From contig JBBITE010000011.1 in NCBI GenBank assembly GCA_037440905.1, positions 10,037 to 74,036 on the forward strand: DNA of 64,000 bases, given 5' to 3'. The notes beneath the pieces are model-generated. The model ran no database searches. It was not told the DNA's origin and worked only from the letters and a program-made list of their open reading frames with translations. The translations under genes and the position numbers were made by a program. How positions within the stretch are numbered: the first letter of the stretch is position 1; the number at the start of each line of letters is the position of its first letter. The DNA is from Anaerolineae bacterium (lineage in GTDB: Bacteria; Chloroflexota; Anaerolineae; Anaerolineales; Villigracilaceae). Shown here piece after piece: positions 6,010-64,000 of the stretch.

Positions 6010-6023
6010 AAGGATGGTCAGTT

Positions 6024-23251: not shown

Positions 23252-24508
23252 ATGCCGCCCGTCATCCGTTTCATTGATGTATCCAAACGCTACAACCTGG
23301 GGCTGACGCGCACCAGCCTGCCCTCCGTCATTTCCCAATGGGCAAAACAAGTCCTGCGGGGCGGCAACGCCTCGGCCCGTAAATATCACTGGGCGCTGCG
23401 AAACGTCAGTTTTGATCTGGAAAAAGGAGAATCGCTGGCGCTGGTCGGTCCGAACGGCGCGGGCAAATCCACCATCCTCAAACTGCTGGCGAAGATCACC
23501 AACCCCACTTCGGGGAAGGTGGAGGTGCATGGGCAGTTATCTGCCCTGATCGAGTTGGGAGCGGGGTTTCATCCCGACCTGACCGGGCGCGAGAATATCT
23601 ACCTCAACGGCACTATTCTGGGACTGTCATACAAGGATGTGCAAAAACGCTTCGATGAAATCGTGGCGTTTTCCGAAATCGAAGAGTTCATTGATACGCC
23701 TGTCAAACGCTACTCCTCCGGCATGACTGTGAGGCTGGGGTTCGCCGTCGCCTCCTGCATCGAACCGGATATTCTGCTCGTGGACGAAGTGCTGGCGGTG
23801 GGCGACGCCTCCTTCCGTCAGAAGTGCATCGAACGCATCAAGACGCTCCTCAACAACGGCACCAGCCTGATCTTCGTCTCGCACGATATGGGGCTGGTTC
23901 GGTCGGTCTGCGAACGCGCCATCTACATCGAACACGGGCAGGTGCAGCAGAGCGGCACCAGCGGCGAAATCATAGACCTTTACAACCAGGTGCTCGACCG
24001 GCGGCGCATCGAAAAAATGAACCGCGCCGAGGGAGCGATGGAGGACGTGGAAGGCGGCGTGGAGGTCATCAAGGTCGAAGCGCTCGATGCCAACGGCAAC
24101 CCCGTCCGCGAAACCTATGGCGACCAGCCTCTGGAAATCCGCGTCAAATATGCCGCGTATAAAGACATCGGCAAAGCCAATGCCATCATCCTCATCTACC
24201 GCTCCGATGGGCTGATGTGCGCCAACATGCGCTCGCACCTCGATGGCTACCCCCTGCACATCACCAAAGGCGAGGGCGAATACTCCGTGCGCCTCGAACC
24301 GCTGCAACTGTTTGGCGGCACCTACTACGCCATCACCTGGATCATGAACGCAGATGACTCCGATGGCATCGCCTACGGCGCATCAGAGTGGTTCGAAGTA
24401 CGCAACCGCGTTCCGGGGCGCGAGGCGCACATTGCCGTCTATGAACCGAACCGGCGGTGGAGTCAAAATCTCCGCACCGCCGTCACCGAAACCGCGAGGC
24501 AGGCATGA
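23252..24508 (+). CDS. wzt: polysaccharide ABC exporter ATPase with Wzt_C domain
   Basis: WALRNVSF, GPNGAGKST, YSSGMTVRLGF, LLVDEVLAVGD, VSHD; about 170-aa C-terminal carbohydrate-binding-type domain. Confidence 0.93.
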   Translation: MPPVIRFIDVSKRYNLGLTRTSLPSVISQWAKQVLRGGNASARKYHWALRNVSFDLEKGESLALVGPNGAGKSTILKLLAKITNPTSGKVEVHGQLSALIELGAGFHPDLTGRENIYLNGTILGLSYKDVQKRFDEIVAFSEIEEFIDTPVKRYSSGMTVRLGFAVASCIEPDILLVDEVLAVGDASFRQKCIERIKTLLNNGTSLIFVSHDMGLVRSVCERAIYIEHGQVQQSGTSGEIIDLYNQVLDRRRIEKMNRAEGAMEDVEGGVEVIKVEALDANGNPVRETYGDQPLEIRVKYAAYKDIGKANAIILIYRSDGLMCANMRSHLDGYPLHITKGEGEYSVRLEPLQLFGGTYYAITWIMNADDSDGIAYGASEWFEVRNRVPGREAHIAVYEPNRRWSQNLRTAVTETARQA

Positions 24509-25287
24509 TCGCACAAACCAACCCGCTCCTCAAACTGCGCGACCTCATCTGGGCGTGGACGCTGCGCACCCTGCGCGGGCGTTATCAGCAGTCTGCTCTT
24601 GGCTGGCTGTGGGCAATCGTCCAGCCGGTGGCCACCGTCGCCATCTTTGCGGTGGTCTTCACCCGCATCGTCCCGGTGGATACGGGCGGCGTGCCGTACA
24701 TTCTCTTTTCCTACACGGCGGTCGTCCCCTGGACGCTGCTGGCGACATCGCTACCCGATATGGCGATGTCGCTCGTTCAAAACATGAACCTGGTGGGCAA
24801 AATTTACTTCCCGCGCGAGGCGCTGCCCATCGCCGCCCTGCTTGCCCGCATCGCCGACTTTGGCATCTCATTCATCCTGCTGGTGATTCTCGTTGTCATC
24901 TATGGGATTCCCGTCTCGCTGCCGGCTTTGCTCTACCTGCCCCTCATTTTCCTCATCCAAATCGCGCTTCTGCTCGGACTGGGAATTGGCACCGCCGCCC
25001 TGAACGTGTTCTACCGCGACGTGGACCCCCTGCTCAAACTTATCATCCAGGTCTGGTTCTATGCCTCGCCCATCCTCTACCCTGTGACTCTCGTCCCGCA
25101 GCAGTGGCAGTGGCTGTACTTCCTCAACCCCATGGCGGGCATCATCGCCGCCTACCGCGACGTGCTCATTTACGACCGCCTGCCGGGTGAATACCTGCTG
25201 CCTGCCGCCCTGGTTTCGCTGGTCATCTTTGCCCTGGGCTACTGGTTCTTCAAACGCGTCGAATTTCAGTTTGCAGATATTATCTGA
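24505..25287 (+). CDS. wzm: polysaccharide ABC exporter permease
   Basis: RYQQSALGWLWAIVQP, KIYFPRE, FYASPILYP, LNPMAGII. Confidence 0.93.
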   Translation: MIAQTNPLLKLRDLIWAWTLRTLRGRYQQSALGWLWAIVQPVATVAIFAVVFTRIVPVDTGGVPYILFSYTAVVPWTLLATSLPDMAMSLVQNMNLVGKIYFPREALPIAALLARIADFGISFILLVILVVIYGIPVSLPALLYLPLIFLIQIALLLGLGIGTAALNVFYRDVDPLLKLIIQVWFYASPILYPVTLVPQQWQWLYFLNPMAGIIAAYRDVLIYDRLPGEYLLPAALVSLVIFALGYWFFKRVEFQFADII

Positions 25288-36134: not shown

Positions 36135-36890
36135 ATGATGGAGGAGTTGATCGGTTTGATCCCCGCCGCGGGGAAGGGTGTTCGGCTTGGTTTGCCGTAT
36201 CCGAAGGAATTGTATCCCGTCATTCGCAACAACCATTACAAGCCCATTTCGCAATTTGTGGTGGATAACCTGGTCAATGCGGGGTTGAAGCATATTGTCT
36301 TTGTCATCAACGAGACCAAACATCAGTTGATTGGCTATTTTGGCAACGGCATGCGCTTTGGCTGCGACTTCAGTTACGTGGTGCAGGAAGTGGTGGAAGG
36401 GAAGACCAAGTCCACCTCGCCGGGGCTGGCGCACGCGCTGGATTCAGCCTATCACCTCATCCGCGGGAAGACGGTCTTCTTTGGCATGGCGGATACGCTG
36501 ATGAAGCCCAACGATGTCTTCAAGCGGGTTTATCAAGCCGCCGCGCCCGAAGACGACGTGCTGCTGGGCATGTTCACCACCGAGCGCCCCGAAAAATTTG
36601 GCATGGTGCGCATGGACGGCAACAGCCGCGTGCTGGAGATTGTGGACAAGCCCAAACAAACCGATCTGACGCAGATGTGGGGCTGCATTGTGTGGCGTCC
36701 CAGGTTCACCGAGTATTTGCACAGGTGTGTTTTTGAAGAAGGCATTTCCGATTTTGCGAAGATCATGAACGATGCCATTGCGATGGGGATGAAGTTCAAA
36801 GGCGTGCATATGGAAGACGGCACGTACATTGACCTCGGCACGTATGACGAGATTGCAGACCTTGACCGTAAATACCGAGGGGAGGAATAG
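36135..36890 (+). CDS. sugar-1-phosphate nucleotidyltransferase (RmlA/HddC-like)
   Basis: GLIPAAGKGVRLG..PKELYP, GLAHA, FGMV, IVDKP, YIDLGT. Confidence 0.85.
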   Translation: MMEELIGLIPAAGKGVRLGLPYPKELYPVIRNNHYKPISQFVVDNLVNAGLKHIVFVINETKHQLIGYFGNGMRFGCDFSYVVQEVVEGKTKSTSPGLAHALDSAYHLIRGKTVFFGMADTLMKPNDVFKRVYQAAAPEDDVLLGMFTTERPEKFGMVRMDGNSRVLEIVDKPKQTDLTQMWGCIVWRPRFTEYLHRCVFEEGISDFAKIMNDAIAMGMKFKGVHMEDGTYIDLGTYDEIADLDRKYRGEE

Positions 36891-47952: not shown

Positions 47953-49800
47953 ATGAAACACTTCGACAAAAAGATTACAGCGGAAATTTTCCTCCAAGCC
48001 GCCTGGTTTGCCCTGTTGACCGGGCTGGTGGAAGGCATGCTGCTCTACATTTTCAGAACCTTCGAACTGCTGAAGGGACAAATCACCTACCTCGGCTCCG
48101 GCTGGCAGGTGCTGTGGATTGCGCCGCTCTTCGACCTGCTGCTCTTTCTGGTCGTGGGAGCGGGCCTGGCGCTCGCCGCGTACTTCCTCCCGCCGCCCTG
48201 GGCGAAACGGCTGGCGCTGTTTGCCTTTGCCTTCCTGATGACCTTCGCCTGGCTGGGGACGTATCTCTCCGGGCGGCTCTCGCCGGTGGCCACGCTTATC
48301 CTTTCAGCAGGGATTGGCTATCAGGTATCGCTGAGTCTCTTCGAGCGTGAGAAACGATTCGTTCCTTTTGTCCGCAAAACCGTCCGATGGCTGGGTGTCG
48401 TTGTCCTGGGACTGCTGGTGGTAATCCAAATCGGCTATTGGCTCAGCGAGCAGATTGCCGTGCGCAGCCTGCCGCCGGCCAAAGCCTCCACCCCCAACGT
48501 TTTGTGGATTGTCATAGACACCCTGCGCGCCGACCACATGTCGCTGCACGGCTACGAGCGCCAGACCGACCCCTACCTCGCCAGCCTCGCCGAACAAAGC
48601 GTCGTCTTTGATAACGCCTACGCCACCTCCTCCTGGACTCTCACCTCTCACGCTTCGCTCTTCACCGGGCGCTGGCCTTACGAACATAAAGCCGACGGCG
48701 GACGCCACCTCGACGATACCTACCCCACCATTGCCGAAGCCCTTGCAGCGCGCGGTTATCGCACCGGCGCCTTCAACGGCAACTTCGAAACCGTCACCAG
48801 CCGCTGGGGCTTTGCGCGCGGTTTCCACCACTTCGAAGATTATTACCAAACCCTGCCCCAACTGGCGGTCAGTTCCTTCTACGGCAGATTCCTGGAATAC
48901 TATGTGCTGCACAAAGTCTTTGGCATGCAATTTTCCATTGACCGCCGCTGGGCGCCCAGCGTCAACCAATCGGCGCTGGATTGGATCGCGCAGGATGCCA
49001 CCAAACCTTTCTTCGTCTTCATCAACTATTACGACGTTCACGCTCCTTACATCTCGCCCGAACGCGCGCGCTTCTCGCAATACGAAAACCCCGGCGGCCT
49101 CGTCAACACCGATTGGACAACCGCCGACATCTACAACCCCAAAACCCCCGAACAAATCCAGGGCGAAATAGATGCCTACGACGGCGGCATCTACTACACC
49201 GACCAGCAAATCAAACTCCTCATGGAAGAAATGCAGCGGCGCGGCTGGCTCGAAAACACCATTGTGGTGATCACCTCCGATCACGGGGAACTCTTCGGCG
49301 AGCATGGCTTATGGGAACATCACAACTCGCTCTACCGCCCGGTCATCTACGTGCCGCTTATCCTCTGGTATCCGCAAGCGGTGCCTCAGAACCTGCGCAT
49401 CGAGACACCCGTCTCTAACGCCGCCCTGCCCGCTACCATGCTGGACCTGCTTGGCGAACCCGCGCAAGACCTCTTCCCCGGCCCTTCCCTCGCGGAACTC
49501 TGGCGCGATCCCTCCTCTGCCGCTCGCTTTCCAGACCCGATTGCGGAGATGGCCGAATCGCCCTGGGTCAACCCCAATCATCTCTCCATCAAAGGCGATA
49601 TGGTCACCGTCCTTTCCGAAGACTGGCAGTACATCGAGCATGAGTACAACGGCGTCGAACTCTACAACCTGCGCAATGACCCCGACCAATTGAACAACCT
49701 CGCCGCCGAACAGCCCTCGGTGCTCAACCAACTCAAACAGTATTACCTCGATGCCATCGCCAAACTCGGCCTCACCTGGCCCTATGACATCGAAAAATGA
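47953..49800 (+). CDS. membrane-anchored sulfatase-fold hydrolase/transferase 1
   Basis: About 5 N-terminal TMs; IDTLRADH, SSWTLTSHASLFTG, YYDVHAPY, YDGGI..D, TSDHGE. Confidence 0.88.
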   Translation: MKHFDKKITAEIFLQAAWFALLTGLVEGMLLYIFRTFELLKGQITYLGSGWQVLWIAPLFDLLLFLVVGAGLALAAYFLPPPWAKRLALFAFAFLMTFAWLGTYLSGRLSPVATLILSAGIGYQVSLSLFEREKRFVPFVRKTVRWLGVVVLGLLVVIQIGYWLSEQIAVRSLPPAKASTPNVLWIVIDTLRADHMSLHGYERQTDPYLASLAEQSVVFDNAYATSSWTLTSHASLFTGRWPYEHKADGGRHLDDTYPTIAEALAARGYRTGAFNGNFETVTSRWGFARGFHHFEDYYQTLPQLAVSSFYGRFLEYYVLHKVFGMQFSIDRRWAPSVNQSALDWIAQDATKPFFVFINYYDVHAPYISPERARFSQYENPGGLVNTDWTTADIYNPKTPEQIQGEIDAYDGGIYYTDQQIKLLMEEMQRRGWLENTIVVITSDHGELFGEHGLWEHHNSLYRPVIYVPLILWYPQAVPQNLRIETPVSNAALPATMLDLLGEPAQDLFPGPSLAELWRDPSSAARFPDPIAEMAESPWVNPNHLSIKGDMVTVLSEDWQYIEHEYNGVELYNLRNDPDQLNNLAAEQPSVLNQLKQYYLDAIAKLGLTWPYDIEK

Positions 49801-49807
49801 GCCGCCC

Positions 49808-51646
49808 ATGACCGCAAAGCAAACCCCTCGTTTCTTTGCCGCCGGCGAGACCCTTGCGCTCTCTGCCGCCATTGGTCTCCTCACCGGTTTGGTGGAAGGA
49901 CTGCTGCTCTTTGGTCTGGCGCGCGCTGCCTGGCTTACCTGGCGCCTGCAAAACCGCGCCTACTGGTATGAAACCCTGTGGATTGCCCCGCTGGTAGACC
50001 TCGTCCTATTTACGCTGGCGGGAGCGGTCTTTGCGGTGGGGGGGCGTCTCTTGCCGCGCCTGCCGCTGCGCAGGGTTTTCTGGTTTGCCTTTGTCTTCCT
50101 TACTGTCTTCGACTGGTTCTTCATCCTGCTGTTTGGCAAAATCTCTCTCTTTGCCATCCTGCTCCTCGCCACAGGGACGGCGTATCAAGTCTTCAGTTTC
50201 ATTGCCAGGCGCGAAGCGGCGGCTGCCTCACGCTTACGGCGCTGGCTTCCCTGGCTGGCGGGCGCGGTGGCGCTGCTTTTCATCGCCATTCAGGGCGGGG
50301 GCTGGCTCACCGAAAAAATCCAAGCCGCCCGTCTGCCGGCTGCCGCTCCGGCTGCGCCCAATGTCGTGGTCATCATCGTGGATACCCTGCGCGCCGACCA
50401 TCTCTCCTCCTACGGCTACGAACGCCAGACCAGCCCCTTCATAGACAGCCTCGCCGCGCAGGGCGTCCGTTTCGAAACCGCGATTGCTCCTTCCTCCTGG
50501 ACTCAACCCTCCCACGCCTCCATGTTGACGGGACGCTACACCTACGAAACCCAGGCTGAGACCCAGCCCTTGGATGATACCTATCCCACCATCGCTGAGG
50601 TCATGCAAGCCAACGGCTACCGCACCGGCGCTTTCTCGGCGAATACGCTCTTCTTTACCCGCCGCCAGGGGCATGGACGCGGCTTTTTGCACTTTGAAGA
50701 CAACTACCAGTCGCTGCCCGATGCGTTCCTCAACTCCTCCCTCTACGGATTCCTCTTCGACTTCTACGGCTTGCGCCGGGCGCTGGGCTATGAGGGAGTC
50801 CCCACGCGCCGCCTCGCCTCCGACATCAACCGCGCCGCCCTGAATTGGATTGACGGCGGGAGCCAGCCCTTCTTCGTCTTTATGAACTACTTCGACGTGC
50901 ACGATCCCTACACCCCGCCGCAGCCGTATCGCAGCAAGTTTGCCTCCGTGCCAAATCCCGGCGGCCTGATCAACGGCTTCGTCGAACGCTATTCTCCCTC
51001 CCTCACGCCGGAACAACTGCAATCTGAAATTGACGCCTACGATGGCTCGATTGCCTACGTGGACGATCAAATCAAAGACTTGTTCGGCGAACTGGAAAAA
51101 CGCGGCTTGCTCGAAAACACCATCGTCATCATCGCTTCGGATCACGGCGAATCGCTGGGTGAACACGGACTGCTTCAACACAGCGCCTCGCTCTACCTGC
51201 CGGAAATCCATGTACCACTCATCCTCTGGGCGCCAGGACGGGTGCCCGCCGGCAGGAGCATCGAAACCCCCGTCAGCCTCACCTCTCTGCCGTCCACCAT
51301 CCTGGCGCTGATTGGAGCCACCCCGCAGCCCTTCCCGGCGCAGCCTCTCACGCTGCTCCTCAACGCCGAAACCCCGCCCGCCGATTGGCGCGACCCCATC
51401 GCGGAACTGGCAAAGATGGAAGGCGCGGCAGAGATCAACCCATCCACGCATGGCGCCATGAAATCGGTCGTCGGCGCCGAAATGCAGTATATTACGCACG
51501 AAACCTTTGGCGAGGAACTTTACAACTGGCGGCAGGATCCACAGGAAACCAACAACCTCGTCCACGACCCCGCCGCCAAAGACGCGTTGAACGGCTTTCG
51601 CCTGTACCTGAAAACCATGCTCGGTCAACTCTTTCAACTGCCATGA
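49808..51646 (+). CDS. membrane-anchored sulfatase-fold hydrolase/transferase 2 (tandem paralog)
   Basis: VDTLRADH, SSWTQPSHASMLTG, YFDVHDPY, ASDHGE. Confidence 0.88.
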   Translation: MTAKQTPRFFAAGETLALSAAIGLLTGLVEGLLLFGLARAAWLTWRLQNRAYWYETLWIAPLVDLVLFTLAGAVFAVGGRLLPRLPLRRVFWFAFVFLTVFDWFFILLFGKISLFAILLLATGTAYQVFSFIARREAAAASRLRRWLPWLAGAVALLFIAIQGGGWLTEKIQAARLPAAAPAAPNVVVIIVDTLRADHLSSYGYERQTSPFIDSLAAQGVRFETAIAPSSWTQPSHASMLTGRYTYETQAETQPLDDTYPTIAEVMQANGYRTGAFSANTLFFTRRQGHGRGFLHFEDNYQSLPDAFLNSSLYGFLFDFYGLRRALGYEGVPTRRLASDINRAALNWIDGGSQPFFVFMNYFDVHDPYTPPQPYRSKFASVPNPGGLINGFVERYSPSLTPEQLQSEIDAYDGSIAYVDDQIKDLFGELEKRGLLENTIVIIASDHGESLGEHGLLQHSASLYLPEIHVPLILWAPGRVPAGRSIETPVSLTSLPSTILALIGATPQPFPAQPLTLLLNAETPPADWRDPIAELAKMEGAAEINPSTHGAMKSVVGAEMQYITHETFGEELYNWRQDPQETNNLVHDPAAKDALNGFRLYLKTMLGQLFQLP

Positions 51647-54525: not shown

Positions 54526-56067
54526 ATGTCCAATCTGCCGGGGAAGTTTACGCTCAAGCCTCAACAGACCCTTTTGACAGCCCTCGGGCTGCTGCTGCTC
54601 TATTTTCTCGTCTTCCACAACCTCACGCGCTTCCCCGAACCCTGGTTCGATGAAGGCTCGCACCTGCACGTCCCCAAGACGCTGGTGCGATACGGCGTCT
54701 ATGCCGACATCAGCAGCGAGGGATTCCGCTATTACGGACCCACCATCGGCGTCGGCCCGACCGTCATGCTTCCCATCGCGGCGGCGTTCAAACTCTTCGG
54801 CGTTGGCTTATTGCAGGCGCGGCTGGTCATGGCGCTGTATCTGCTGGCTGCCATCTACGTGTTTTATCGTCTGGTCGAACACTTGGCGGGGAAATGGGTA
54901 GCCTGGATCGCCCTTGCCCTGCTGCTCTCTTCGCGCAGCGTGCTGTTTTTGGAATACGGGCGTCAGCTGCTCGGCGAGGTGCCGGGCTTCTTCTTCCTCC
55001 TGCTGGCGCTGTATCTTTGGTTCTCCCGCTGGAACGAGAACGACTGGAAGCGTCTCTCGCTCATCGGCCTGCTCTTCGGGCTGGCGATGATCACCAAGTA
55101 CCAATACCTGCTCTTCCTCGCCCCAACGCTGATCCTTGCCTGGTTGTTGGATATTTTCTATTACAAGACCTCCTCACACCGCAACTTCCTCGTGCCGGGC
55201 ATCATCGCGGCAGGAAGTTTCGGCGTCTGGCAGCTGCTCACGCTCCAGTATCTCGGTCCCTCCACGGCGATGGAGAATCTGGCGCTCCTGCGCGCCTCCG
55301 CCGAAGGGGCAGCCTTCAACTTCAACCTCGCCCAACTCAACGCCAACTTCGGCGAACTGACCGCCCGCGCCGCCTACCTCGGCGCATTGATCCTCGCCCT
55401 GCTCTATGGCTTTTTCCTCTCCCTTCCGCGCACCCGCGAAGGGCAGCAGTGGAGCGTGCTCTTCCTGCTCGCGGCGTTGAACCTGATCTGGTACGTGGTT
55501 GCCTCCATCGGCTGGATTCGCTATGCCTTTCTCGGTCTCAGCCTTTCCAGCATTTTGATTGCCCGCCTGTTTTTCGAAATCACCGAAGGCTTCAAGTTCG
55601 AGTGGAGCGCAGGCTGGTTCCGCTCTCTGTTCGAAGTTCGGAATGCCGCTAAATTTGCGGTTTCCCTCTGGTTGCTGGCGATCATTCTGATTCCCACGGC
55701 AAAGAATGTGCTGGATATTGCCGCCCCGCCCCCGCCGTATGCGATGCAAATGGCGGAATACCTCAATCAAAATGTTCCCCTCGATGCCGTCATCGAAACC
55801 TGGGACCCTGAAATGGGCTTTCTGACCGACCACAACTATCACTACCCGCCCAATGCCCTTTTGGCGGTGGCGGTGGAACAGGTCTATTACGGCGGCGAAC
55901 CAGTGCGGGAACGCTATGACTTTGTCCAAACCGAACAGCCCGATTACTTGCTGGCGGGCGAATTTTCAAAATGGACGGAGATTTATCCTCTCGAAGAACT
56001 CACCGATCAATATGAACTGATCGCCACCTTCGGGAACTACGACCTGTACCGAAAGATTGACCAATAA
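54526..56067 (+). CDS. GT-C membrane glycosyltransferase (ArnT/GT39-like)
   Basis: PWFDEGSH acidic motif in first loop, GPTVMLP, LLGEVP, TKYQ; soluble C-terminal domain. Confidence 0.82.
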   Translation: MSNLPGKFTLKPQQTLLTALGLLLLYFLVFHNLTRFPEPWFDEGSHLHVPKTLVRYGVYADISSEGFRYYGPTIGVGPTVMLPIAAAFKLFGVGLLQARLVMALYLLAAIYVFYRLVEHLAGKWVAWIALALLLSSRSVLFLEYGRQLLGEVPGFFFLLLALYLWFSRWNENDWKRLSLIGLLFGLAMITKYQYLLFLAPTLILAWLLDIFYYKTSSHRNFLVPGIIAAGSFGVWQLLTLQYLGPSTAMENLALLRASAEGAAFNFNLAQLNANFGELTARAAYLGALILALLYGFFLSLPRTREGQQWSVLFLLAALNLIWYVVASIGWIRYAFLGLSLSSILIARLFFEITEGFKFEWSAGWFRSLFEVRNAAKFAVSLWLLAIILIPTAKNVLDIAAPPPPYAMQMAEYLNQNVPLDAVIETWDPEMGFLTDHNYHYPPNALLAVAVEQVYYGGEPVRERYDFVQTEQPDYLLAGEFSKWTEIYPLEELTDQYELIATFGNYDLYRKIDQ

Positions 56068-57644
56068 TGGGAGGCCTCATGGCAGGAAAATTGCTGGTTC
56101 TGGCGGGAACGATCCTCAGCGTACTGTTGTCCGTTTGGGGAACGCGCCGCGCCTCTGCAAAAGTCCATGCGCTGATTCTCAATCTCTTTGCCGCTTATGC
56201 GCTGGTGTGGATTGGCTTTACCGTTTACCTGTGGTTCAATCACATCCATTTTCCTTTGAACCTCGAGGCGATGGAACTGCTCATGCTTCAGCACCTGCGC
56301 CGGCTGATGGCTGGGCTTCCAATTTACGTCGAACCCTCTCCCGATTTTGTTCCCCTTGTTTACGCGCCGCTCTATTATTATCTTTCGGTGCCTTTTGCCT
56401 GGTTGTTTGGCGCCAACCTGTTCAGCATGCGGCTGGTTGCCATTCTGGGAATGCTGGGGGCGGGCGTGGTTCTCTTCCTGGCGGTGAAAAAGCGCACCGC
56501 CTCCACGTGGTGGGCGCTCATTGCGGCGGGCCTCTTTGCCGCATCCTACCGCGCCATGGATACCTACCTCGATAACGCGCATTCCGACTCATGGTTGTTA
56601 TTCACCGTTTTGCTGAGCTGTTATCTGATTGACCTGAACCGCTCGCGCACCACCAACCTGCTGGGAGTGTTTTTTCTGGTCGTTTCCTTTTGGTTCAAAC
56701 AGCACGGCGCCCTGTTTGCCGTGGGCGGAGTGTTGTACCTCACCTGGCGGGAGGGCATCAAACACTCGTGGGCTTATTGGGCGCTGGCGGCGCTGCTCGG
56801 CCCGCTGCTGTATGCCCTGGCGCCCTCGCTGATGTTTGGACCTCAGTTTCATTACTACACCCTCATTGTTCCCAGCCAGTGGAGCGCGGTCAATTTGGCC
56901 GGCATCAAACGTTACATCGGGTATGCCGTCAAGAACTATTTTGTGCTTGCCTCCGCAGGCACAACGGCTGCGCTCGTTTCCCTGTTGCGCAAGTGGAAGG
57001 AAGCGGGCATTTGGTATTTCATGTTTCCCTTTGCGGCGCTGAGCGGCTTTCTTGGAGCAATGGATGACGGCTCCAACAACAACATTTTCATCCCCGTTGC
57101 CACCTGGTTCATCCTCGCGGGCGTTTTGGGGCTGCAATATGCCGCTGAACATTTTCCCTGGGTCAAAAGGTGGGCGCTGCATCTTCTGGCTGTGGGAGCC
57201 TCATTTGCCCTGCTTTTCTATAACCCTGCCACCGTCCTTGTCTCCCCCAGAGCGCCGCAAGCCTATCAGGACTTTCTTCAATACCTGAATTCTTTGAACG
57301 GACAAGTCTATGCTCCCTGGATCGGCCCTCTGCAGGATGGATACGATTTCCAGCCTGCCGTCCATTGGGTGCCAATGGAAGACCTGATTCGCGGTCCTGG
57401 TGTGGATGAATACAATCATCCCACCACACGCAAACTGCTCGAAGCCGTCCTTCATCCCGCTGGCCCCGCTTATATTTTGATGAACTACCCCCTCGAAAAC
57501 GATGCGCTCTTGAGTTTTCTTCTGGAAGACTATCGCCTCAAAGAAGACCTGGGGGAACGCTTCGCGCCTCTTTCCACGCTGCCGAGACGCTTCGACTTGC
57601 AATACCCCCGCTACCTCTATGAATACGTTCCCCCTCAACCCTAA
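56067..57644 (+). CDS. GT-C-like multi-pass membrane protein
   Basis: About 12 TMs; LEAME, YAPLYY, AHSDSW, FKQHG; alternative start 56079. Confidence 0.7.
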   Translation: MGGLMAGKLLVLAGTILSVLLSVWGTRRASAKVHALILNLFAAYALVWIGFTVYLWFNHIHFPLNLEAMELLMLQHLRRLMAGLPIYVEPSPDFVPLVYAPLYYYLSVPFAWLFGANLFSMRLVAILGMLGAGVVLFLAVKKRTASTWWALIAAGLFAASYRAMDTYLDNAHSDSWLLFTVLLSCYLIDLNRSRTTNLLGVFFLVVSFWFKQHGALFAVGGVLYLTWREGIKHSWAYWALAALLGPLLYALAPSLMFGPQFHYYTLIVPSQWSAVNLAGIKRYIGYAVKNYFVLASAGTTAALVSLLRKWKEAGIWYFMFPFAALSGFLGAMDDGSNNNIFIPVATWFILAGVLGLQYAAEHFPWVKRWALHLLAVGASFALLFYNPATVLVSPRAPQAYQDFLQYLNSLNGQVYAPWIGPLQDGYDFQPAVHWVPMEDLIRGPGVDEYNHPTTRKLLEAVLHPAGPAYILMNYPLENDALLSFLLEDYRLKEDLGERFAPLSTLPRRFDLQYPRYLYEYVPPQP

Positions 57645-57659
57645 CCGCATCGAGCTTAC

Positions 57660-60524
57660 ATGACCCGCCACCATTCCCACCTCACCCTCAACAGCGAATA
57701 CGGCAGGAACCGCGCCGGCGATGGGCGCAACCTCTCCCTCACCCGCCGCGAATTCCTGCAAACCGGCATGGTCCTCCTCAGCGGCGCCGTCTTGCCGCGT
57801 TTCCTTGCCGACCTGAGCGCCGGCGGTTTGGCGCAGGAATTCAGCGGCAAACGCATTTACATCGCCCCCGATGATCACACCGACCTCTTCTGGTCTGCCG
57901 ACCTGCCCGCCTACGAGCAGGCTTTCCTCGACATGCTCGACTACTACCTCGACCTGGCAGACCGCACACAAAACGAACCGCCCGAATTCCAAAGCCGCTG
58001 GAACTGTGATGGCAGTTTTTGGGTGTGGGTGTACGAGAAGAAAAAATCACCGGCAGCGTTCAACCGCCTCATCGAACGCATCCGCAGCGGACACATCAGC
58101 ATGCCCCTCAACGCCCTGTGCATCTGCCTGGGCGGTGCGCCTGCCGAGGCGGTTCTGCGCGGCATGTATTACCCCGGCAAACTGGAGCGGCGCTACAACC
58201 TGCGCTTCCCCATCGCCTACTCCATGGAAAACCAGACCCTGCCCTTCGGCTTGGGCGCACTGTGGGCGGGCGCCGGCGCAACCTTTAGTTGGAAGGGCAT
58301 TTGCGATTGCGCCACCAAAGTCCCCGATGCCTGGGACCGCGAACACGACATCTACTGGTGGGCGGGCGCCGATGGCAGCCGCCTGCTTATGAAATGGAAC
58401 TCCATGCTCACCGGCAACCAGGGCATGGGCGGTTACGCCGAGGCGCGCTATCCCGACCAGGTGGTCAACTACGTAGATTCCGACGAGGCGTTCAAAGCCC
58501 GTTACCCCTACCAGGTCATTGGCGCTTTTGGTCATGGCTGGGACGACCTGCAAACCCAAACCGACGAATTTGTCACCACAGCCAAGAACCTCTCCAATCA
58601 AAACTTCAAAGTCATCGTCTCCAACGAAATAGACTTTGCCCACGACTTCGAAAAAACCTACGGAAGCGACATCCCCTCCCTCTCCGCCAGTTTCGGCAAC
58701 GAATGGGACCTCGACTGCGCCAGCCTGGCGGAAGTCTCGGCGCGCATCAAACGCGCGGTGGAAAAACTGCGCACCGCCGAAAGCCTGGCAGCGCTGGTCT
58801 CGCTCAAACAAAACGACTTCATGCGCGGCCGTGAAGAAGCGCGCGACCAGGCATGGATGAACCTGGGGCTGTATTGGGAACACAACTTTCAAGGCGCCCC
58901 CTGGGAAAACCACGTTCAAAACAGCATCGCATGGCATCGCCGCATCACGGGCGAAGTCGAAGCCTACGTCAACACCCTGCACGACGACGCCCTGCGCGTC
59001 CTCGGCGGCATGATTCACAAAAGCGGCGCGAACGAGCGCTTCTTCGTCTTCAACCCGCTGGGCTGGGCGCGCACCGATTATGCCGATTACCCCTACGACG
59101 GCGCCGAACCCGTCCACGTTGTCAGCGTGGATGAGGAACGGGAAACGCCGAGCCAGGTCATCGTCAAAGACGGGAAGCGTTGGCTGCGCATCCTGGCGGA
59201 GAACATCCCCTCGGTCGGGTATAAAGTCTTCGAGATTCGCCCCGGCGCCGGTCAGCCGTTCTCCAGCGAGATGAACGTCCGCGCGGGCGTGATCGAAAAC
59301 CGCTTCTACAAAGTGACGGTGGATGGACGCGGCGCGGTGACCAGCCTGATTGACAAGACGCGCGGCCGCCGCGAACTGGCGGCGGAAATCAACGGACGCT
59401 TCATCAATGACCTGGGGCCGGGCGCCGGCAATTTGACCTTGGAAAACGCTGGCAGCGTCTCTGCCACCCTGCTCGCCTCAGCCGAGTCTCCGCTCGCCCA
59501 TGAGACGCGCATCACTCTGTTTCGGGATATAGACCGCATCGAAATCCGCAACGACATCATCCAGAATTTCAATGCCACCAGCACCTGGGGCTTTGGCTTT
59601 GCAGTGCAGAACCCGGTGGTGCATCACGAAGAGGTGGGCGCGATTCTGCGGGCGCGGCTCACCACCGAAGGCGGACATTACTCGCCGCGCAACGCCCGCT
59701 ACGACTGGCTCACCCTCAACCATTTTGCCGATCTCAGCGGCGAAGCGGGCGGAGTGACCCTTTCCAACGCCGATTGCTATTTCATGAAAGTGGGGAACAG
59801 CACGGTGGGCGAATTGGATACCTCCACGCCGCAACTCTCCGTGCTGATTGGCGGCAACGACCTGAACGGCGGCGGCGTGCTGGGCGACCAGGGCGGAGAC
59901 GAGCGTTTCCTGCAGCGCTTTGCCCTGCGCGCCCACGAAGCCTATAGCCCTGTGGCGGCGATGAAGTTCGCCCTCGAACATCAAAACCCGCTTGCAACGG
60001 GAAACGTGCAAGGCGGAAGTGAGTATCCCGAAGGCGCATATTCGCTGCTGACAGTGGATAACCCCAACGTTCTTCTCTGGGCATTGAAGCCCGCAGAAGA
60101 GGGGCTCGAAGCCGGGCTGGTTGTTCGGGTGTGGAAGGTTTCCGAAGGCGCCGAAAGCCTGTCGGTATCGCTCGAGGGCGGAATCGCCGAAGCGCTGGCG
60201 CTGACGCACATCGAAACTCCCGCGGCGATTGCTGCTGTGGAGGAGGGCAGGCTGGTGGATGTCATCCAACCGCAGCAAATGAAGACGTATGCCGTCTTCC
60301 CGTCTGCCCTGCCGTTTCGTCCCGATACCAGCGGGCTGGAGCGCGTCACCGCCACGCCGCCGGCGGCCACCTCCCTCCCGCCTGCCGATACCACAACTCC
60401 TCCCCCTGCCTCTGTAACGAACACCCCGCCACCCCCGTCATTTACACAGACGGCAGAACCCGCCGAACCAGGCGGCAAAGGATGTTTGTTTGGATTGTTG
60501 TCCATATTGGGCTTGCTGAAATAA
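57660..60524 (+). CDS. Tat-exported GH38 (alpha-mannosidase)-like glycoside hydrolase with Pro/Thr linker and Cys-containing hydrophobic tail
   Basis: LTRREFLQ Tat motif; DDHTDLFW and RWNCDGSF N-terminal metal/catalytic-type motifs; VFNPLGWAR, IENRFYKV, GAVTSLIDK GH38 C-terminal-like motifs; ends GGKGCLFGLLSILGLLK. Confidence 0.75.
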   Translation: MTRHHSHLTLNSEYGRNRAGDGRNLSLTRREFLQTGMVLLSGAVLPRFLADLSAGGLAQEFSGKRIYIAPDDHTDLFWSADLPAYEQAFLDMLDYYLDLADRTQNEPPEFQSRWNCDGSFWVWVYEKKKSPAAFNRLIERIRSGHISMPLNALCICLGGAPAEAVLRGMYYPGKLERRYNLRFPIAYSMENQTLPFGLGALWAGAGATFSWKGICDCATKVPDAWDREHDIYWWAGADGSRLLMKWNSMLTGNQGMGGYAEARYPDQVVNYVDSDEAFKARYPYQVIGAFGHGWDDLQTQTDEFVTTAKNLSNQNFKVIVSNEIDFAHDFEKTYGSDIPSLSASFGNEWDLDCASLAEVSARIKRAVEKLRTAESLAALVSLKQNDFMRGREEARDQAWMNLGLYWEHNFQGAPWENHVQNSIAWHRRITGEVEAYVNTLHDDALRVLGGMIHKSGANERFFVFNPLGWARTDYADYPYDGAEPVHVVSVDEERETPSQVIVKDGKRWLRILAENIPSVGYKVFEIRPGAGQPFSSEMNVRAGVIENRFYKVTVDGRGAVTSLIDKTRGRRELAAEINGRFINDLGPGAGNLTLENAGSVSATLLASAESPLAHETRITLFRDIDRIEIRNDIIQNFNATSTWGFGFAVQNPVVHHEEVGAILRARLTTEGGHYSPRNARYDWLTLNHFADLSGEAGGVTLSNADCYFMKVGNSTVGELDTSTPQLSVLIGGNDLNGGGVLGDQGGDERFLQRFALRAHEAYSPVAAMKFALEHQNPLATGNVQGGSEYPEGAYSLLTVDNPNVLLWALKPAEEGLEAGLVVRVWKVSEGAESLSVSLEGGIAEALALTHIETPAAIAAVEEGRLVDVIQPQQMKTYAVFPSALPFRPDTSGLERVTATPPAATSLPPADTTTPPPASVTNTPPPPSFTQTAEPAEPGGKGCLFGLLSILGLLK

Positions 60525-60702
60525 CGGCTGTAACGGATGGTATTCCGCAAAAAGTGACTTTAGCCACTTGAAGCGGGTACTTATAGCCGCTACGATAATC
60601 ACAGTACAGCGTGCTACGGCGCTTCGATTGTTGCAGGGAATTCAAAGAACGTTTCAAACGCTCCCACACCGTTTACGCAGGGAAACAGAAAGGAAGATAC
60701 TC

Positions 60703-61686
60703 ATGGATCAGGTCAGAATTGGAGTCATCGGTACCGGCAGGATGGGTCAGAGCCACTGCCGCGTGTATTCGAATTTGAGGCACGCGAAATTCATCGGAAT
60801 TTGCGATTCCAACCCAGAAGTGGGCAAGGAGATGGCGCGCCGTCACGAGGTCTCGTTTTTCAGAGAGGTGGACGCCCTGCTCGAAAACGTGGACGCCGTC
60901 AGCGTTTGCACCCCCACGCCCTATCACTATGAAATCGTCAAGCGCTGCCTCGATGCGGGAGTCCATGTGTTGGTGGAGAAGCCGTTCACCGAAACGCTGG
61001 AGCAGGCTGAGGCGTTGAAAGACGCGGCATCCAAAGGCGGGGCAATCGTGCAGGTGGGGCATATCGAAAAATTCAACCCCGCCTTCATCGAATTGCGGAA
61101 AGTGCTGGAAGGCATGGACGTGCTGGCGATGAACTTCAACCGCCTGAGTCCCTTCCAGGGCAGCAACGTGGACGTGGACGTGGTCCTCGACCTGATGATC
61201 CACGACATCGGTCTGGTGGTGGACCTGTTCGAGAACGAGCCGCTCTCGGTGGATGCGCACGGCTTTGCCGTCTTCACCGACAGCATTGACTACGGCATGG
61301 CGGTCTTGAAATATGCGCCCGAAATTTTGCTCACCCTCACCGCCTCGCGCGTGACCGAACAAAAGATTCGCGCCATTTCCGTCACCACGCGCGAGGCTTA
61401 CATCGAGGCAGACTTGCTGCACAAGACCATCGAAGTGCACCGCCGCACTCTGGGCGATTACGTCAACTATAAGAATAGTCACAAATACCGCCAGGAAAGC
61501 CTGATCGAGCGCATTGTCGTCCCCACGATGGAACCGCTGTTCCTCGAACTGCAGGATTTCGTCACCTGCGTTGCCGAAGGCAAGACCCCCCAGGTCACCG
61601 CGGCAGATGGCTACAACGCCCTGCGCTTCGTCCTGCTCCTGCGCGACAAAATTTTAGAATCCCGAAGGATGCAAAGTCAAGCATGA
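60703..61686 (+). CDS. Gfo/Idh/MocA oxidoreductase (WbpB/WlbA-like)
   Basis: GVIGTGRMG, CTPTPYH, VLVEKP, VGHIEKFNP, DLMIHDI; AAGGA RBS before ATG 60703. Confidence 0.85.
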   Translation: MDQVRIGVIGTGRMGQSHCRVYSNLRHAKFIGICDSNPEVGKEMARRHEVSFFREVDALLENVDAVSVCTPTPYHYEIVKRCLDAGVHVLVEKPFTETLEQAEALKDAASKGGAIVQVGHIEKFNPAFIELRKVLEGMDVLAMNFNRLSPFQGSNVDVDVVLDLMIHDIGLVVDLFENEPLSVDAHGFAVFTDSIDYGMAVLKYAPEILLTLTASRVTEQKIRAISVTTREAYIEADLLHKTIEVHRRTLGDYVNYKNSHKYRQESLIERIVVPTMEPLFLELQDFVTCVAEGKTPQVTAADGYNALRFVLLLRDKILESRRMQSQA

Positions 61687-62447
61687 AACTTTCGATTGTC
61701 GTACCCTGCTTTAATGAAGAGGATAATATCGAGAAACTGAAGAACGAATTCTTTCCGGTGGTCGAAAGCCTGCTGGGAAGAGCGGTGGACGGCAAAGCCA
61801 TTGACGCCATCGAAATCATCTTCGTAGATGATGGCAGCCGTGACGGCACCTACAACGCCCTCAAGCAAGCCTTTGGCGCGTATGCGCATCCGTCCATCGA
61901 GGTCAAGTTCGAAAAGCACGAAGTCAATCGCGGGCTGGGCGCAGCCATCCGCACCGGCTTCAAAGCGGTAAGCGGCGACGTTATCGTCACCACCGACAGC
62001 GACGGCACGTATCACTTCTCCACCATCCCCGCCATGCTCGAACACCTCAAAGGCGATGTCGCCATCGTCACCGCCTCGCCCTACCACCCCAAAGGGGAGG
62101 TGGTGGGCGTGCCGGGCTACCGCATCTTTCTCAGCCGCGGCTCGTCTCTGCTCTACCGCATTTTGCTCAGTTGGAAGGTGCACACCTACACCGCCCTCTA
62201 CCGCGCCTACCGCCGCGAAGTGATCGAGCGCATCTCTTTCTCCGCCGATGACTTCCTGGGCGGTACGGAACTCATGGTCAAAGCCATGCTCAAAGGCTAC
62301 CGTGTGGACGAATTTCCCGCCGCGCTGCACCGCCGCATGTTCGGCGTTTCCAAAGCCAAACTGCTCAAAACCATCAAATCGCATCTTGGCTTTCAGCTGC
62401 GGCTGATTTTGCACCGCCTGCGCCTCCGCTCCATGTTTGCAGACTGA
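61683..62447 (+). CDS. GT2 polyprenol-phosphate glycosyltransferase (DPM1-like, soluble)
   Basis: VVPCFNEE, VDDGSRD, NRGLGAAIRTG, TDSDGTY, RMFGVSK. Confidence 0.88.
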   Translation: MKLSIVVPCFNEEDNIEKLKNEFFPVVESLLGRAVDGKAIDAIEIIFVDDGSRDGTYNALKQAFGAYAHPSIEVKFEKHEVNRGLGAAIRTGFKAVSGDVIVTTDSDGTYHFSTIPAMLEHLKGDVAIVTASPYHPKGEVVGVPGYRIFLSRGSSLLYRILLSWKVHTYTALYRAYRREVIERISFSADDFLGGTELMVKAMLKGYRVDEFPAALHRRMFGVSKAKLLKTIKSHLGFQLRLILHRLRLRSMFAD

Positions 62448-62498: not shown

Positions 62499-63104
62499 AT
62501 GGGTGTAAGAATTCATCCTACTGCCGAAGTGTCAGACAAGGCAAAAATCGGGGAGGGCTCGAGCATCTGGCATCATGCCCAGGTGCGCGAAAATGCCGTC
62601 ATCGGCGAAAACTGCATCATCGGCAAAGGCGTCTATGTAGATGCGGGGGTTGTCATCGGCAACAACGTCAAAATCCAAAACTACGTTTCCGTCTATCACG
62701 GGCTGACCATCGAAGACGGCGTCTTTGTCGGACCTCACGTCTGTTTCACCAACGACATGCGTCCCCGCGCCGTCAACCCCGACGGTTCGCTCAAAGCCGC
62801 CGACGACTGGGTGCTGAGCGAAACACGCATCAAGCGCGGCGCGGCGCTGGGCGCCAACTCCACCATCCGCTGCGGCATCACCATCGGCGAGTGGGCCATG
62901 GTTGGCTCCGGCAGCGTCGTCACCAAAGACGTGCCCGCCTATGGCCTGGTGTATGGCAACCCGGCGCGCCTGCATGGGTTTGTCTGTGCCTGCGGCGAAA
63001 TCACCGCAAAGGTTTCGCAAAACGAACAGGCAGTCACCGTCCAATGCCCAAAGTGCAAACGTACAATGGACATTTCCATTCAAGATTGGGAGAAACTACA
63101 ATGA
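62499..63104 (+). CDS. N-acetyltransferase, left-handed beta-helix (WbpD/WlbB-like)
   Basis: [37 protein letters not shown]-terminal CxC..CxxC. Confidence 0.88.
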
Positions 63105-64000
63105 TTCACATGGCAAAACCCCAAATTGGGGCAGAAGAAAAACAAGCCGTTTTGGAAGTGTTGGAGTCCGGCATCATTGCCCAGGGTCCGCGCGTCAAAG
63201 CCTTCGAGGAAGGCTTCGCCCAAATGTGCGGCGTCAACCATGCCGTTGCCACCTCGTCCGGCACCACGGCGCTGCATGTGGCGCTGCTGGCGCACGGCAT
63301 CGGCAACGGAGACGAAGTCATCACCTCCGCCTTCACCTTCATCGCCTCTGCCAACAGCGTTTTATACGCCGGCGCCAAACCGGTCTTTGTGGATATTGAC
63401 CCGCGCACCTTCAACCTGGACCCCAGCCAGATCGAAGCCGCCATCACGCCTCGGACCAAAGCCATTCTCCCGGTTCATCTCTACGGCTTAGCCTGCGATA
63501 TGGACCCGATCCTCAGCCTCGCCGAAAAATACGGGCTGATCGTCATTGAAGACGCCTGCCAGAGCCATGGCGCAACCTACAAAGGGAAAAAGGTCGGCTC
63601 TTTTGGCACCGGCACCTTTTCGCTGTACCCCACCAAAAACATGACCTCCGGCGAGGGCGGCATGATCACCACGAACGATGCGGCGATTGACGAAAAGTGC
63701 CGTGTGATTCGCCAGCATGGTATGCGCGTCCGCTACTATCACGATGAACTCGGCTTCAACTTCCGCATGACCGACATCCACGCCGCCATTGGTCTGGCGC
63801 AGCTGCACAAACTGGAACAGTTCAACGCCAAGCGCCAGGCAAACGCCCAATTCCTGAGCGAAAACCTCAAAGGCGTGGTGACGCCGTTCGTGCCGGAGGG
63901 GCAGACCCATGTCTTTCACCAGTACACCATCCGCGTCCCCGATGGGAAGCGTGACGCGTTGAGGAATCACTTGCAGGAAAGAGGCGTCGGCTCCGAAGTG
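63101..64000 (+). CDS. DegT/DnrJ/EryC1/StrS sugar aminotransferase (WbpE/WlbC-like), runs off window end
   Basis: Not in ORF track. [38 protein letters not shown] (PLP Lys)..GEGG..GFNFRM; ATG overlaps previous TGA. Confidence 0.92.

Follow-up and report, generated by a model that had tools for sequence, protein, structure and literature searches.

A candidate outside-acting tailoring arm with a putative membrane-tethered GH38-superfamily enzyme in a surface-glycan cluster of an Anaerolineales bacterium

Extracytoplasmic systems in which GT-C transferases use lipid-linked sugars to decorate exported glycans are established, and their three-component forms include GtrB/GtrA/GtrV, ArnC/ArnEF/ArnT, CsbB/GtcA/YfhO and the set of polyprenyl-phosphoribose synthase, MATE and GT136 proteins (PMC11127046). 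In streptococci, lipid-sugar/GT-C pairs (GtrB/PgtC2 and PgfS/PgfM1) glycosylate Ser/Thr-rich disordered regions (PMC12041528). A gene module comparable to these systems was analysed here in a 64,000-nucleotide stretch of DNA, hereafter the window (positions 10037-74036 of contig C11), from an Anaerolineales genome of 3.25 Mb that is 98% complete. The interval at 54.5-62.4 kb of the window is a tightly packed plus-strand operon coding for two GT-C transferases (GT-C no. 1 and GT-C no. 2), an exported protein of 954 amino acids (aa), a WbpB-like protein, a GT2 glycosyltransferase of 254 aa, and WbpD- and WbpE-like proteins. A preliminary description of this DNA had placed two GT-Cs, a Tat-exported GH38-like hydrolase and a DPM-like GT2 within 8 kb, and every one of these elements was recovered at or near its place. 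It is proposed, with a probability that we put at roughly 55%, that they form an outside-acting tailoring arm of a surface-glycan cluster, in which the GT2, the GT-Cs and the 954-aa protein, as a tethered GH38-superfamily enzyme, would work on the same glycan.

The neighbourhoods of the GH38-like gene in other genomes were compared over four encoding contigs and 80 genome loci, using custom hidden Markov models and all-against-all clustering of the open reading frames (ORFs) in the flanks; the close homologues are labelled Anaerolineales or Chloroflexota by their sources. It was found that 24 of the 28 Chloroflexota loci have a GT-C gene no more than 10 kb from the GH38-like gene, and that in 16 of them the two share a strand with under 200 bp between them, the gene order taking several forms; among the four loci with no GT-C, one is a contig of 3.6 kb and another has adjacent unassigned multi-span ORFs. 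As a six-frame search found 15 PMT_2-type GT-C genes in the 3.25 Mb of the genome, the chance of meeting one within 10 kb of a random gene is about 9%. The DPM-like GT2 and an orthologue of GT-C no. 1 are each present in 16 of the 28 loci, and WbpB, an LtaS-like protein and a 671-aa Tat protein in 10 each (WbpB-like genes were also seen in 4 of 27 Acidobacteriota loci). Counted over 83 loci, co-occurrence was highest for the DPM-like GT2 (20), DegT (19), the GT-C no. 1 type (16), WbpB (15) and the GT-C no. 2 type (15), followed by WbpD (14), a third GT-C type (13), LtaS-like proteins (12), GT4 (12), an AT3-SGNH acyltransferase (11) and the 671-aa Tat protein (10). The type of GT-C that immediately precedes the hydrolase gene varies (the GT-C no. 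2 type or the third type), the adjacency itself being maintained, and within the query's clade this adjacency holds down to about 55% identity. The extracytoplasmic arm claimed earlier is thus supported, as a conserved arrangement, by the fold assignments and by the Chloroflexota counts for GT-C and GT2 genes, and since the nearest relatives keep the genes together, they are probably one unit that adds and trims cell-surface sugars.

On a tree of 83 members, the linkage is concentrated in a clade with 97% support, where 27 of 32 members are linked, and in a separate Blastocatellia clade; none of 500 label shuffles was as clustered as the observed linkage. The genes occur in various orders, which speaks for selection to keep them close. 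In a Blastocatellia/Acidobacteriota subset (L004/L015, L018, L020 and L022), the GH38-like gene adjoins a convergent block coding for an unknown 505-aa membrane protein, a PMT_2 GT-C, a UbiA-family protein, a polysaccharide deacetylase, an amine-oxidase-type flavoprotein and WbpB/D/E-like proteins, and the pairing of UbiA with a GT-C recalls the three-component systems of the polyprenyl-phosphoribose (pentofuranose) type (PMC11127046). The module is an accessory, clade-restricted arrangement, and the enzyme family, taken in its full breadth, is not bound to GT-Cs.

The 954-aa protein was related to GH38 by structure and by profile. It gave no match to Pfam, where PF01074, PF07748 and PF17677 all failed to reach threshold, and nothing in the whole genome matched PF01074 at E <= 1; the sole match to NCBIfam was a local one of 62 residues to the mannosylglycerate hydrolase MngB (23.5 bits against a cut-off of 1138 bits), and a single-sequence search of the PDB was empty or meaningless. 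An AlphaFold2 (AF2) model was built on 40 diverse family members (pLDDT 87.9, pTM 0.86), and all of its top 40 Foldseek matches were GH38 structures, the best being E. faecalis 5kbp (E 3.7e-39, TMq 0.67, TMt 0.72, about 945 aligned columns), with further full-length matches to S. pyogenes 2wyi, Ams1, Golgi mannosidase II and jack-bean mannosidase; GH57 came far behind (1k1w, a 4-alpha-glucanotransferase; E 1e-11, TM-score 0.25). The modelled protein displays the multi-domain architecture of GH38, with a predicted N-terminal seven-stranded barrel, a helical linker and C-terminal beta domains. The family profile also matched the GH38 entry 3lvt of the PDB (E 2.5e-10), and when a profile of the N domain was aligned by hhalign to eight canonical GH38 N domains from other Anaerolineae genomes, a probability of 94.6% was obtained (E 7e-8, 248 columns), the MAFFT alignment agreeing motif by motif.

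On comparing these motifs, it was found that the canonical GHAHIDVAW corresponds to APDDHTDxFW in the GH38-like family, in which the first His is replaced by Asp (D71) and in which H73 and D75, aligned with the metal-binding His and Asp of HxHxD, are retained. The canonical GESLVRQ is matched by AEAVLRGM, where E163 and R167 are retained, and LWLPDVFGY by AxxMENQTLPxG, where E190 aligns with the nucleophile Asp of WLPDxFG; this is also the fourth metal-ligand position, which is therefore Glu and not Asp. Two alignment methods agree on this position, and in the 40 aligned members it is Glu in 38, Asp in one and Lys in one. The canonical FGxGDGGGG is matched by FGxGWDDLxT, with an invariant D295 that aligns with or adjoins the acid/base Asp of the GxGDGGGG / GVDH motif, and H408 aligns with the His of the HD motif when the profile is compared with PDB sequences. 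Judged from these alignments, the protein belongs to the GH38 superfamily, as a separate Glu-nucleophile branch with a conserved site, which is probably functional. The label GH38 that had been given to it earlier therefore stands at the level of the superfamily, by fold and by profiles, but not at that of the Pfam GH38 models, which fail, or of the nucleophile, which is Glu rather than Asp. The metal site of GH38 enzymes normally binds the cis 2,3-diol of mannose, as in Golgi mannosidase II, so its retention speaks for a mannose-like sugar at the site of cleavage and against a 2,3-diacetamido sugar as the residue removed.

The GH38-like family is large: close homologues number over 2000, and at 50% identity the members form 2310 clusters. 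It ranges over Chloroflexota, Acidobacteriota, Planctomycetota and Nitrosomonas. Some members have weak precomputed matches to the N, C and C2 models of GH38, and are named alpha-mannosidase or glycoside hydrolase by their sources. Three Anaerolineae sequences (G034:C236:6774-9332, G037:C9:88801-90090 and G017:C18:25237-26493) score alike on PF01074 and on the family profile; they bridge canonical GH38 and the GH38-like family and are evolutionary intermediates. The G034 copy has a TAG in frame. Several paralogues (P0079, P0084, P0107 and P0113) carry the GH114-associated domain PF14741 at the C-terminus, and at L003:6772-9951 a paralogue bearing this domain forms a tandem pair with an ordinary copy, next to three genes for GT-Cs. 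The Nitrosomonas loci (L052-L082, n = 14) include the isolates Nm84 and Nm166 and hold the family at about 54% identity to the query; their neighbours are unrelated (FG-GAP/RTX proteins, dienelactone hydrolase and DUF4139), and cultured strains of this genus could be used for biochemistry on the family.

The 954-aa protein consists of a twin-arginine translocation (Tat) signal at about residues 27-58, the three-domain GH38-like body at about 62-885, a Thr/Pro stalk at about 890-940 and a C-terminal tail. Its N-terminal region reads TRREFLQ followed by the hydrophobic GMVLLSGAVLP. The Tat models of Pfam and NCBIfam gave no score on the protein. The twin-arginine motif [ST]RRxF[LMI] is present in all 10 aligned homologues of Chloroflexota type as well as in the query, in agreement with the Tat export claimed in the preliminary description. 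Distant homologues have mostly ordinary signal peptides or no recognisable Tat motif, three of them having an RR motif; since most members have a recognisable signal of the Tat or Sec type, the family is taken to be extracytoplasmic. At the C-terminus (window 60450-60524), the Thr/Pro stalk is followed by GKGC and about 12 hydrophobic residues (GKGC-LFGLL), and the tail G-[KN]-G-C-[LIV]-x-G-L-L is conserved in orthologues down to about 57% identity. From this sequence, the enzyme would be tethered to the cell's own membrane through the stalk and the hydrophobic tail. The GKGC tail was found in no other ORF of the genome, and as a single protein carries it genome-wide, a shared sorting signal or sorting system with many clients is unlikely.

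A GT-C fold or family model was matched by GT-C no. 1, GT-C no. 2 and a third GT-C gene that the preliminary description had already indicated upstream and that is the only gene in the window matched by PF02366. GT-C no. 1 is read here from a TTG start, an ATG being located at 54526; it has about 11 hydrophobic segments, a C-terminal outside domain, and an acidic FDEG motif (D51-E52) right after the first transmembrane segment, in what is probably the first outside loop. The topology of both GT-Cs of the operon was estimated from hydropathy and from AF2 helices. GT-C no. 2 had no usable match when scanned directly against Pfam and NCBIfam, its family profile found nothing among PDB sequences, an hhalign comparison with GT-C no. 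1 was insignificant, and only 2 of 20 of its homologues matched PMT_2 in hmmscan; E70 is invariant in this family. The assignment of GT-C no. 2 as a GT-C follows from its PMT_2 match above cut-off (six-frame genome search) and from the AF2 model (pLDDT 86.5, pTM 0.89), whose top Foldseek matches are all GT-C, namely ArnT 5ezm (E 3e-6, TM-score 0.5), ALG12, AftB, PglB, AftA and EmbB. Single-sequence PDB searches with GT-C no. 1 and with the third GT-C were empty or meaningless.

The 254-aa GT2 is, by sequence, of the polyprenyl-phosphate sugar synthase type (DPM1/GtrB/ArnC): its GT-A catalytic domain is most similar to GT2s with a lipid-phosphate acceptor, and the similarity extends to the C-terminal interface helices. 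Its best match in the PDB was the DPMS of P. furiosus (5mlz, E 7e-19, residues 1-241 of 254), followed by ArnC (E 3e-10, residues 2-250). The best NCBIfam models were Dol-P-hexose transferase, PgfS, ArnC and PpgS, then PgaC and AglJ, all under their equivalog cut-offs; the PgfS score of 58.6 bits is far under the cut-off of 500 bits. The protein has no transmembrane helix and an amphipathic C-terminus. The second DPM-like GT2 that had been noticed at the other end of the window was likewise recognised, its matches to DPMS 5mlz (E 2e-23), ArnC (E 3e-23) and GtrB (E 1e-12) covering the membrane part. The 254-aa GT2 is flanked by the WbpB-, WbpD- and WbpE-like genes, which together form a gene set for a 2,3-diacetamido sugar.

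Pfam scans of the window revealed one very large surface-glycan cluster of 62 kb with the module at its 3' end, almost every gene being carried on the plus strand (Table 1). It contains sugar-nucleotide genes, two Wzy_C proteins, about 12 GT2/GT4 enzymes (Leloir glycosyltransferases), a sulfotransferase, and phosphodiesterase-type and LtaS-type proteins. Within the operon, the two GT-C genes overlap by 1 nt, GT-C no. 2 is separated from the 954-aa gene by 15 nt, and the WbpB-like gene overlaps that of the GT2 by 4 nt; promoter and terminator scans performed no better than shuffles. The real start of the WbpB-like gene is probably near 60703, and its product scored 213 bits on the NCBIfam model UDP-GlcNAcDh_Arch, under the cut-off of 450 bits. 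The WbpE-like gene extends past the window and ends at C11:74213, a GT4 gene being next.

Table 1. Positions of the module and of other features of the surface-glycan cluster in the window
Feature	Coordinates	Strand	Evidence
Phosphoglycosyl transferase	2551		Pfam scan of window
GHMP kinase and SIS-domain isomerase	5029-6635		Pfam scan
Second polyprenyl-phosphate sugar synthase-type GT2, 398 aa, C-terminal transmembrane helices	8145..9341	+	PDB matches
Wzm/Wzt	23252-25287		Pfam scan of window
Nucleotidyltransferase	36135-36890		Pfam scan
Third GT-C, 449 aa	39226..40575	+	PF02366 41.5 bits, PF13231 39 bits
Two LtaS/EptA-like membrane 'sulfatase'-fold transferases	47953..51646	+	PF00884; 4-5 N-terminal transmembrane segments
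Tat-signal exported protein, 671 aa	51643..53658	+	TAT_signal matches (Pfam/NCBIfam)
Small exported protein, 193 aa	53770..54351	+	N-terminal hydrophobic segment ending in Cys; Thr/Pro-rich linker
GT-C no. 1, PMT_2/ArnT-like, 522 aa	54499..56067	+	PF13231 56 bits
GT-C no. 2, divergent, 525 aa	56067..57644	+	PMT_2 31.9 bits; AF2/Foldseek
Exported GH38-superfamily protein, 954 aa	57660..60524	+	AF2, Foldseek, profile alignments
WbpB-like UDP-GlcNAc 3-dehydrogenase (GFO/IDH/MocA)	60568..61686	+	PF01408 114 bits
Polyprenyl-phosphate sugar synthase-type GT2, 254 aa	61683..62447	+	DPMS/ArnC matches
WbpD-like hexapeptide N-acetyltransferase	62499..63104	+	PF00132 91 bits
WbpE-like DegT aminotransferase	62891..64000	+	PF01041 404 bits

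Several of the surrounding genes deserve a separate comment. The LtaS/EptA-like transferases are part of the same outside-acting arm in relatives. The 671-aa Tat protein is a conserved upstream neighbour of the GT-C genes and may be a further outside-acting enzyme of the module; it showed no family match, apart from a weak sub-threshold one to ThuA, and no PDB relative in a single-sequence search. The small exported protein gave no family match in the Pfam scan. The GHMP kinase, SIS-domain isomerase and nucleotidyltransferase could belong to a candidate pathway of the GDP-glycero-manno-heptose type, and a manno-configured heptose is a conceivable substrate of the GH38-like enzyme. Just beyond the window, the DegT and GT4 genes are followed by a gene (C11:75574-78724; L086:1538-4687) that reaches the end of the contig and whose product exceeds 1050 aa; this protein has repeats of the Chlamydia-PMP type and InlB B-repeat domains, and is a candidate large surface protein.

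With respect to the acceptor, the preliminary description had drawn on the actinobacterial PMT, which mannosylates Thr/Pro-rich linkers, and on four proteins with Thr/Pro stalks encoded in the window. The stalks are clear in the products of the genes at 15590, 53770 and 57660 and weaker in that at 12963, but they are not enriched over the genome. When a linker was defined as a 30-aa window with at least 50% Thr plus Pro, it was present in 113 of 2571 long ORFs genome-wide (4.4%), and two such ORFs were observed in the window against about two expected. At this background rate, the linkers in the cluster carry no weight, and they were rejected as a sign of a local glycoprotein system. PMT_4TMC (PF16192), the marker of GT39 protein O-mannosyltransferases, was absent genome-wide, although the C. 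glutamicum control was detected, and on this account membership of the GT-Cs in GT39 was rejected as well. Neither the analogy with the actinobacterial PMT nor the specific reading of O-mannosylated stalks is supported by these two tests. An acceptor of lipid A type, by analogy with ArnT, is excluded, since no LpxC was found in the 98%-complete genome, and the host envelope is regarded as a single membrane without lipid A. The conserved company of the module in relatives comprises the AT3-SGNH acyltransferase, LtaS-like proteins, GT4 and BY-kinase/GNVR proteins, to which the window itself adds Wzm/Wzt and Wzy_C; such company, of a type that tailors polysaccharides or lipoglycans, makes one of these a likelier acceptor than protein. 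With the streptococcal precedent and the large pool of linkers, a protein acceptor keeps some plausibility.

The folds, motifs, export signals, operon packing and conserved linkage are shown by the present analysis, and they are consistent with the following series of events. To judge from its family, the small GT2 would take a sugar from a nucleotide donor and attach it to polyprenyl phosphate on the inner side of the membrane. The lipid-linked sugar would then be flipped by some carrier, for which no candidate gene was found in the window, and the two GT-Cs, again to judge from their family, would transfer the sugar to an acceptor at the outer face, most likely the polysaccharide or lipoglycan that the remaining genes of the cluster produce. 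The GH38-superfamily enzyme, Tat-exported and held at the membrane by its stalk and hydrophobic tail, would act on that glycan; the retained metal site and the gene linkage suggest the removal or remodelling of alpha-linked sugars with free cis 2,3-hydroxyls, i.e. mannose-like sugars. We infer the donor sugar, the acceptor, and the direction and purpose of the hydrolase step from these features, and the hydrolytic 'editing' of the preliminary description would likewise be deduced from the position of the enzyme.

Several points weigh against this proposal. The linked loci are phylogenetically related, so that the counts given above overstate the number of independent events, and the linkage is specific to a clade: it is lacking at every one of the 14 Nitrosomonas loci and at the majority of those from Acidobacteriota, where none of the query's neighbours recurs. 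In Bryobacterales (L050:3828-13950), two tandem GH38-like genes are located between genes for a TonB-dependent-receptor-like outer-membrane protein and a transporter of the amino-acid-permease family, which looks catabolic. Among 40 evenly drawn Anaerolineae genomes, one strong GH38-like member was found (722 bits), outside the linked clade and with GT-C-free flanks. The GT2 is embedded in genes for a diacetamido sugar, which lacks the free 2,3-hydroxyls that a GH38-type metal site normally binds; no flippase of the GtrA, MATE or Wzx type was found among the Pfam matches of the window or in a GtrA-family search, the single good GtrA match in the genome being on contig C28; and with the change of the nucleophile from Asp to Glu, the activity cannot be assumed from GH38 precedent. 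In the same set of 40 genomes, the GH38-like gene was absent from the sampled genome of the query's own family, and the GT-C no. 2 type had two matches, too few positives for a phyletic-profile test. The unlinked distant clades indicate that the hydrolase was recruited into the surface-glycan arm in one clade.

An alternative, which is considered unlikely, is that the GT-Cs are protein O-glycosyl (mannosyl) transferases acting on Thr/Pro stalks, the GH38-like enzyme, itself stalked, trimming the O-glycans. The matches of the GT-Cs to PMT/PMT_2 families would fit, as would the suitability of the retained metal site for a mannose-like sugar, and the 113 linker ORFs of the genome would offer a large pool of acceptors, stalks being present in four proteins of the cluster; GtrB/PgtC2 and PgfS/PgfM1 provide a precedent (PMC12041528), and the GT2 does score on the PgfS model (58.6 bits), though under its cut-off. 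However, the acceptors known for PMT_2 enzymes include lipids, glycans and proteins, so that membership of this family does not name the acceptor, and the genome-wide absence of PMT_4TMC, the lack of linker enrichment in the cluster and the polysaccharide-type character of the conserved neighbours all speak against protein O-glycosylation. Somewhat less probable is a polymer-handling role within the biosynthetic machine, in which the GH38-like enzyme would not be a trimming hydrolase but an endo-acting factor for chain length or release, or an extracellular transglycosylase moving glycan segments; operon-encoded enzymes of this kind are BcsZ, PslG and PelA. A Glu nucleophile is found in the related GH57 fold, including the 4-alpha-glucanotransferase 1k1w (Foldseek E 1e-11), some paralogues carry the GH114-associated domain typical of exopolysaccharide-processing enzymes, and BY-kinase/GNVR chain-length genes are near in relatives; yet the architecture is that of GH38 (TM-score about 0.7) and not of GH57 (0.25), and all characterised GH38 enzymes known to us are exo-alpha-mannosidases or mannosylglycerate hydrolases.

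It is improbable that the GH38-like enzyme serves to scavenge nutrients, as an exo-glycosidase acting on mannans or glycoproteins of foreign origin, its place beside the GT-C genes having no functional meaning. The tandem copies in Bryobacterales between a TonB-dependent-receptor-like protein and a permease could be read in this way, most loci outside Chloroflexota are unlinked to GT-Cs, and the source annotations speak of alpha-mannosidase or glycoside hydrolase. Within the query's clade, however, GT-C adjacency survives several gene orders, down to about 55% identity, the operon genes overlap or nearly abut, and neither a sugar importer nor a catabolic regulator was found beside the GH38-like gene in the window. 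The apparent tether to the cell's own membrane also disagrees with scavenging, as does the frequency of the family in Nitrosomonas (14 loci): these are autotrophic ammonia oxidisers, for which feeding on polysaccharides is unlikely. The objection anticipated in the preliminary description, that the hydrolase might be catabolic and unlinked in relatives, thus applies to the distant clades, which are unlinked and include the one catabolic-looking locus, but not to the close relatives, which are linked. Of these accounts, the tailoring arm acting on a polysaccharide or lipoglycan is the one preferred here.

Lipid-linked, GT-C-dependent decoration of exported glycans is well known, whereas none of the systems described so far includes a conserved glycosidase partner, and literature searches for the combination of GH38 and GT-C found no description of a GH38-type partner in them. 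If it is true that the GH38-like enzyme processes the products of the GT-Cs, glycan trimming as a maturation step would not be confined to eukaryotes. It would also offer a way into the barely known cell envelope of Anaerolineae, a class that abounds in wastewater sludge, in sediments and in soils. A wider and rather doubtful idea is that Anaerolineae and a few other lineages possess a 'build-and-trim' maturation of surface glycans, in which the GT-Cs, outside the membrane, add lipid-donated sugars that a dedicated, membrane-tethered enzyme from a hitherto unrecognised Glu-nucleophile branch of the GH38 fold must trim or transfer before the glycan can mature, as a bacterial counterpart of processing in the endoplasmic reticulum (ER) and Golgi; in that case, the GH38-like family (about 2300 clusters) would deserve its own glycoside-hydrolase family or subfamily with a new specificity. 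The size of the family, its absence from Pfam matches and the change of nucleophile from Asp to Glu make it a clear target for biochemistry and for classification of the CAZy type.

Like the three-component systems, the module pairs a polyprenyl-phosphate sugar synthase of the cytoplasmic face with GT-Cs acting outside, and the glycan cluster around this pair likewise includes an ABC (Wzm/Wzt) route of export. It differs from them in that no flippase was identified in the window, that there are two or three GT-Cs rather than one, that the GT2 has no transmembrane helices, and that an exported GH38-superfamily enzyme is a conserved member. The actinobacterial Ppm1/Pmt and the streptococcal PgfS/PgfM1 and GtrB/PgtC2 systems are similar in combining a lipid-sugar synthase with a GT-C, and this genome too is rich in exported Thr/Pro-rich linkers; unlike in those systems, PMT_4TMC is lacking here and the linkers are unenriched in the cluster, and the streptococcal GT-Cs are of the YfhO type, whereas those of the module are of the PMT_2 type. 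We know of no hydrolase partner in either the Ppm1/Pmt or the streptococcal systems.

The 954-aa protein resembles the class II alpha-mannosidases of GH38 (SpGH38 2wyh/2wyi, 5kbp/3lvt and Drosophila Golgi mannosidase II) in its full-length architecture, with TM-scores of 0.6-0.72, and in the metal-binding His and Asp, the later His, the acid/base Asp and the Glu/Arg pair. It differs from them in its identity of about 13%, in the failure of the Pfam models, in having Asp for the first His of HxHxD and Glu as the nucleophile, and in being Tat-exported and C-terminally tethered; to our knowledge, those bacterial GH38 enzymes that have been studied are located in the cytoplasm. Eukaryotic ER/Golgi processing relies on enzymes of the same three classes (DPM1, the ALG/PMT GT-Cs and Golgi mannosidase II), and ALG12 is the third-best structural match of GT-C no. 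2, but the likeness is one of parts only, and nothing points to N-glycans, to an oligosaccharyltransferase or to a common descent of the pathway. Hydrolases are also known from operons of exopolysaccharide synthesis, examples being BcsZ, PslG, PelA and AlgL. By analogy with these, the enzyme described here may be seen as an exported glycan-cleaving enzyme inside a biosynthetic cluster, with the cell's own polymer as its presumed target, although it belongs to another fold family and is linked specifically with GT-C genes, where the others go with a synthase or polymerase.

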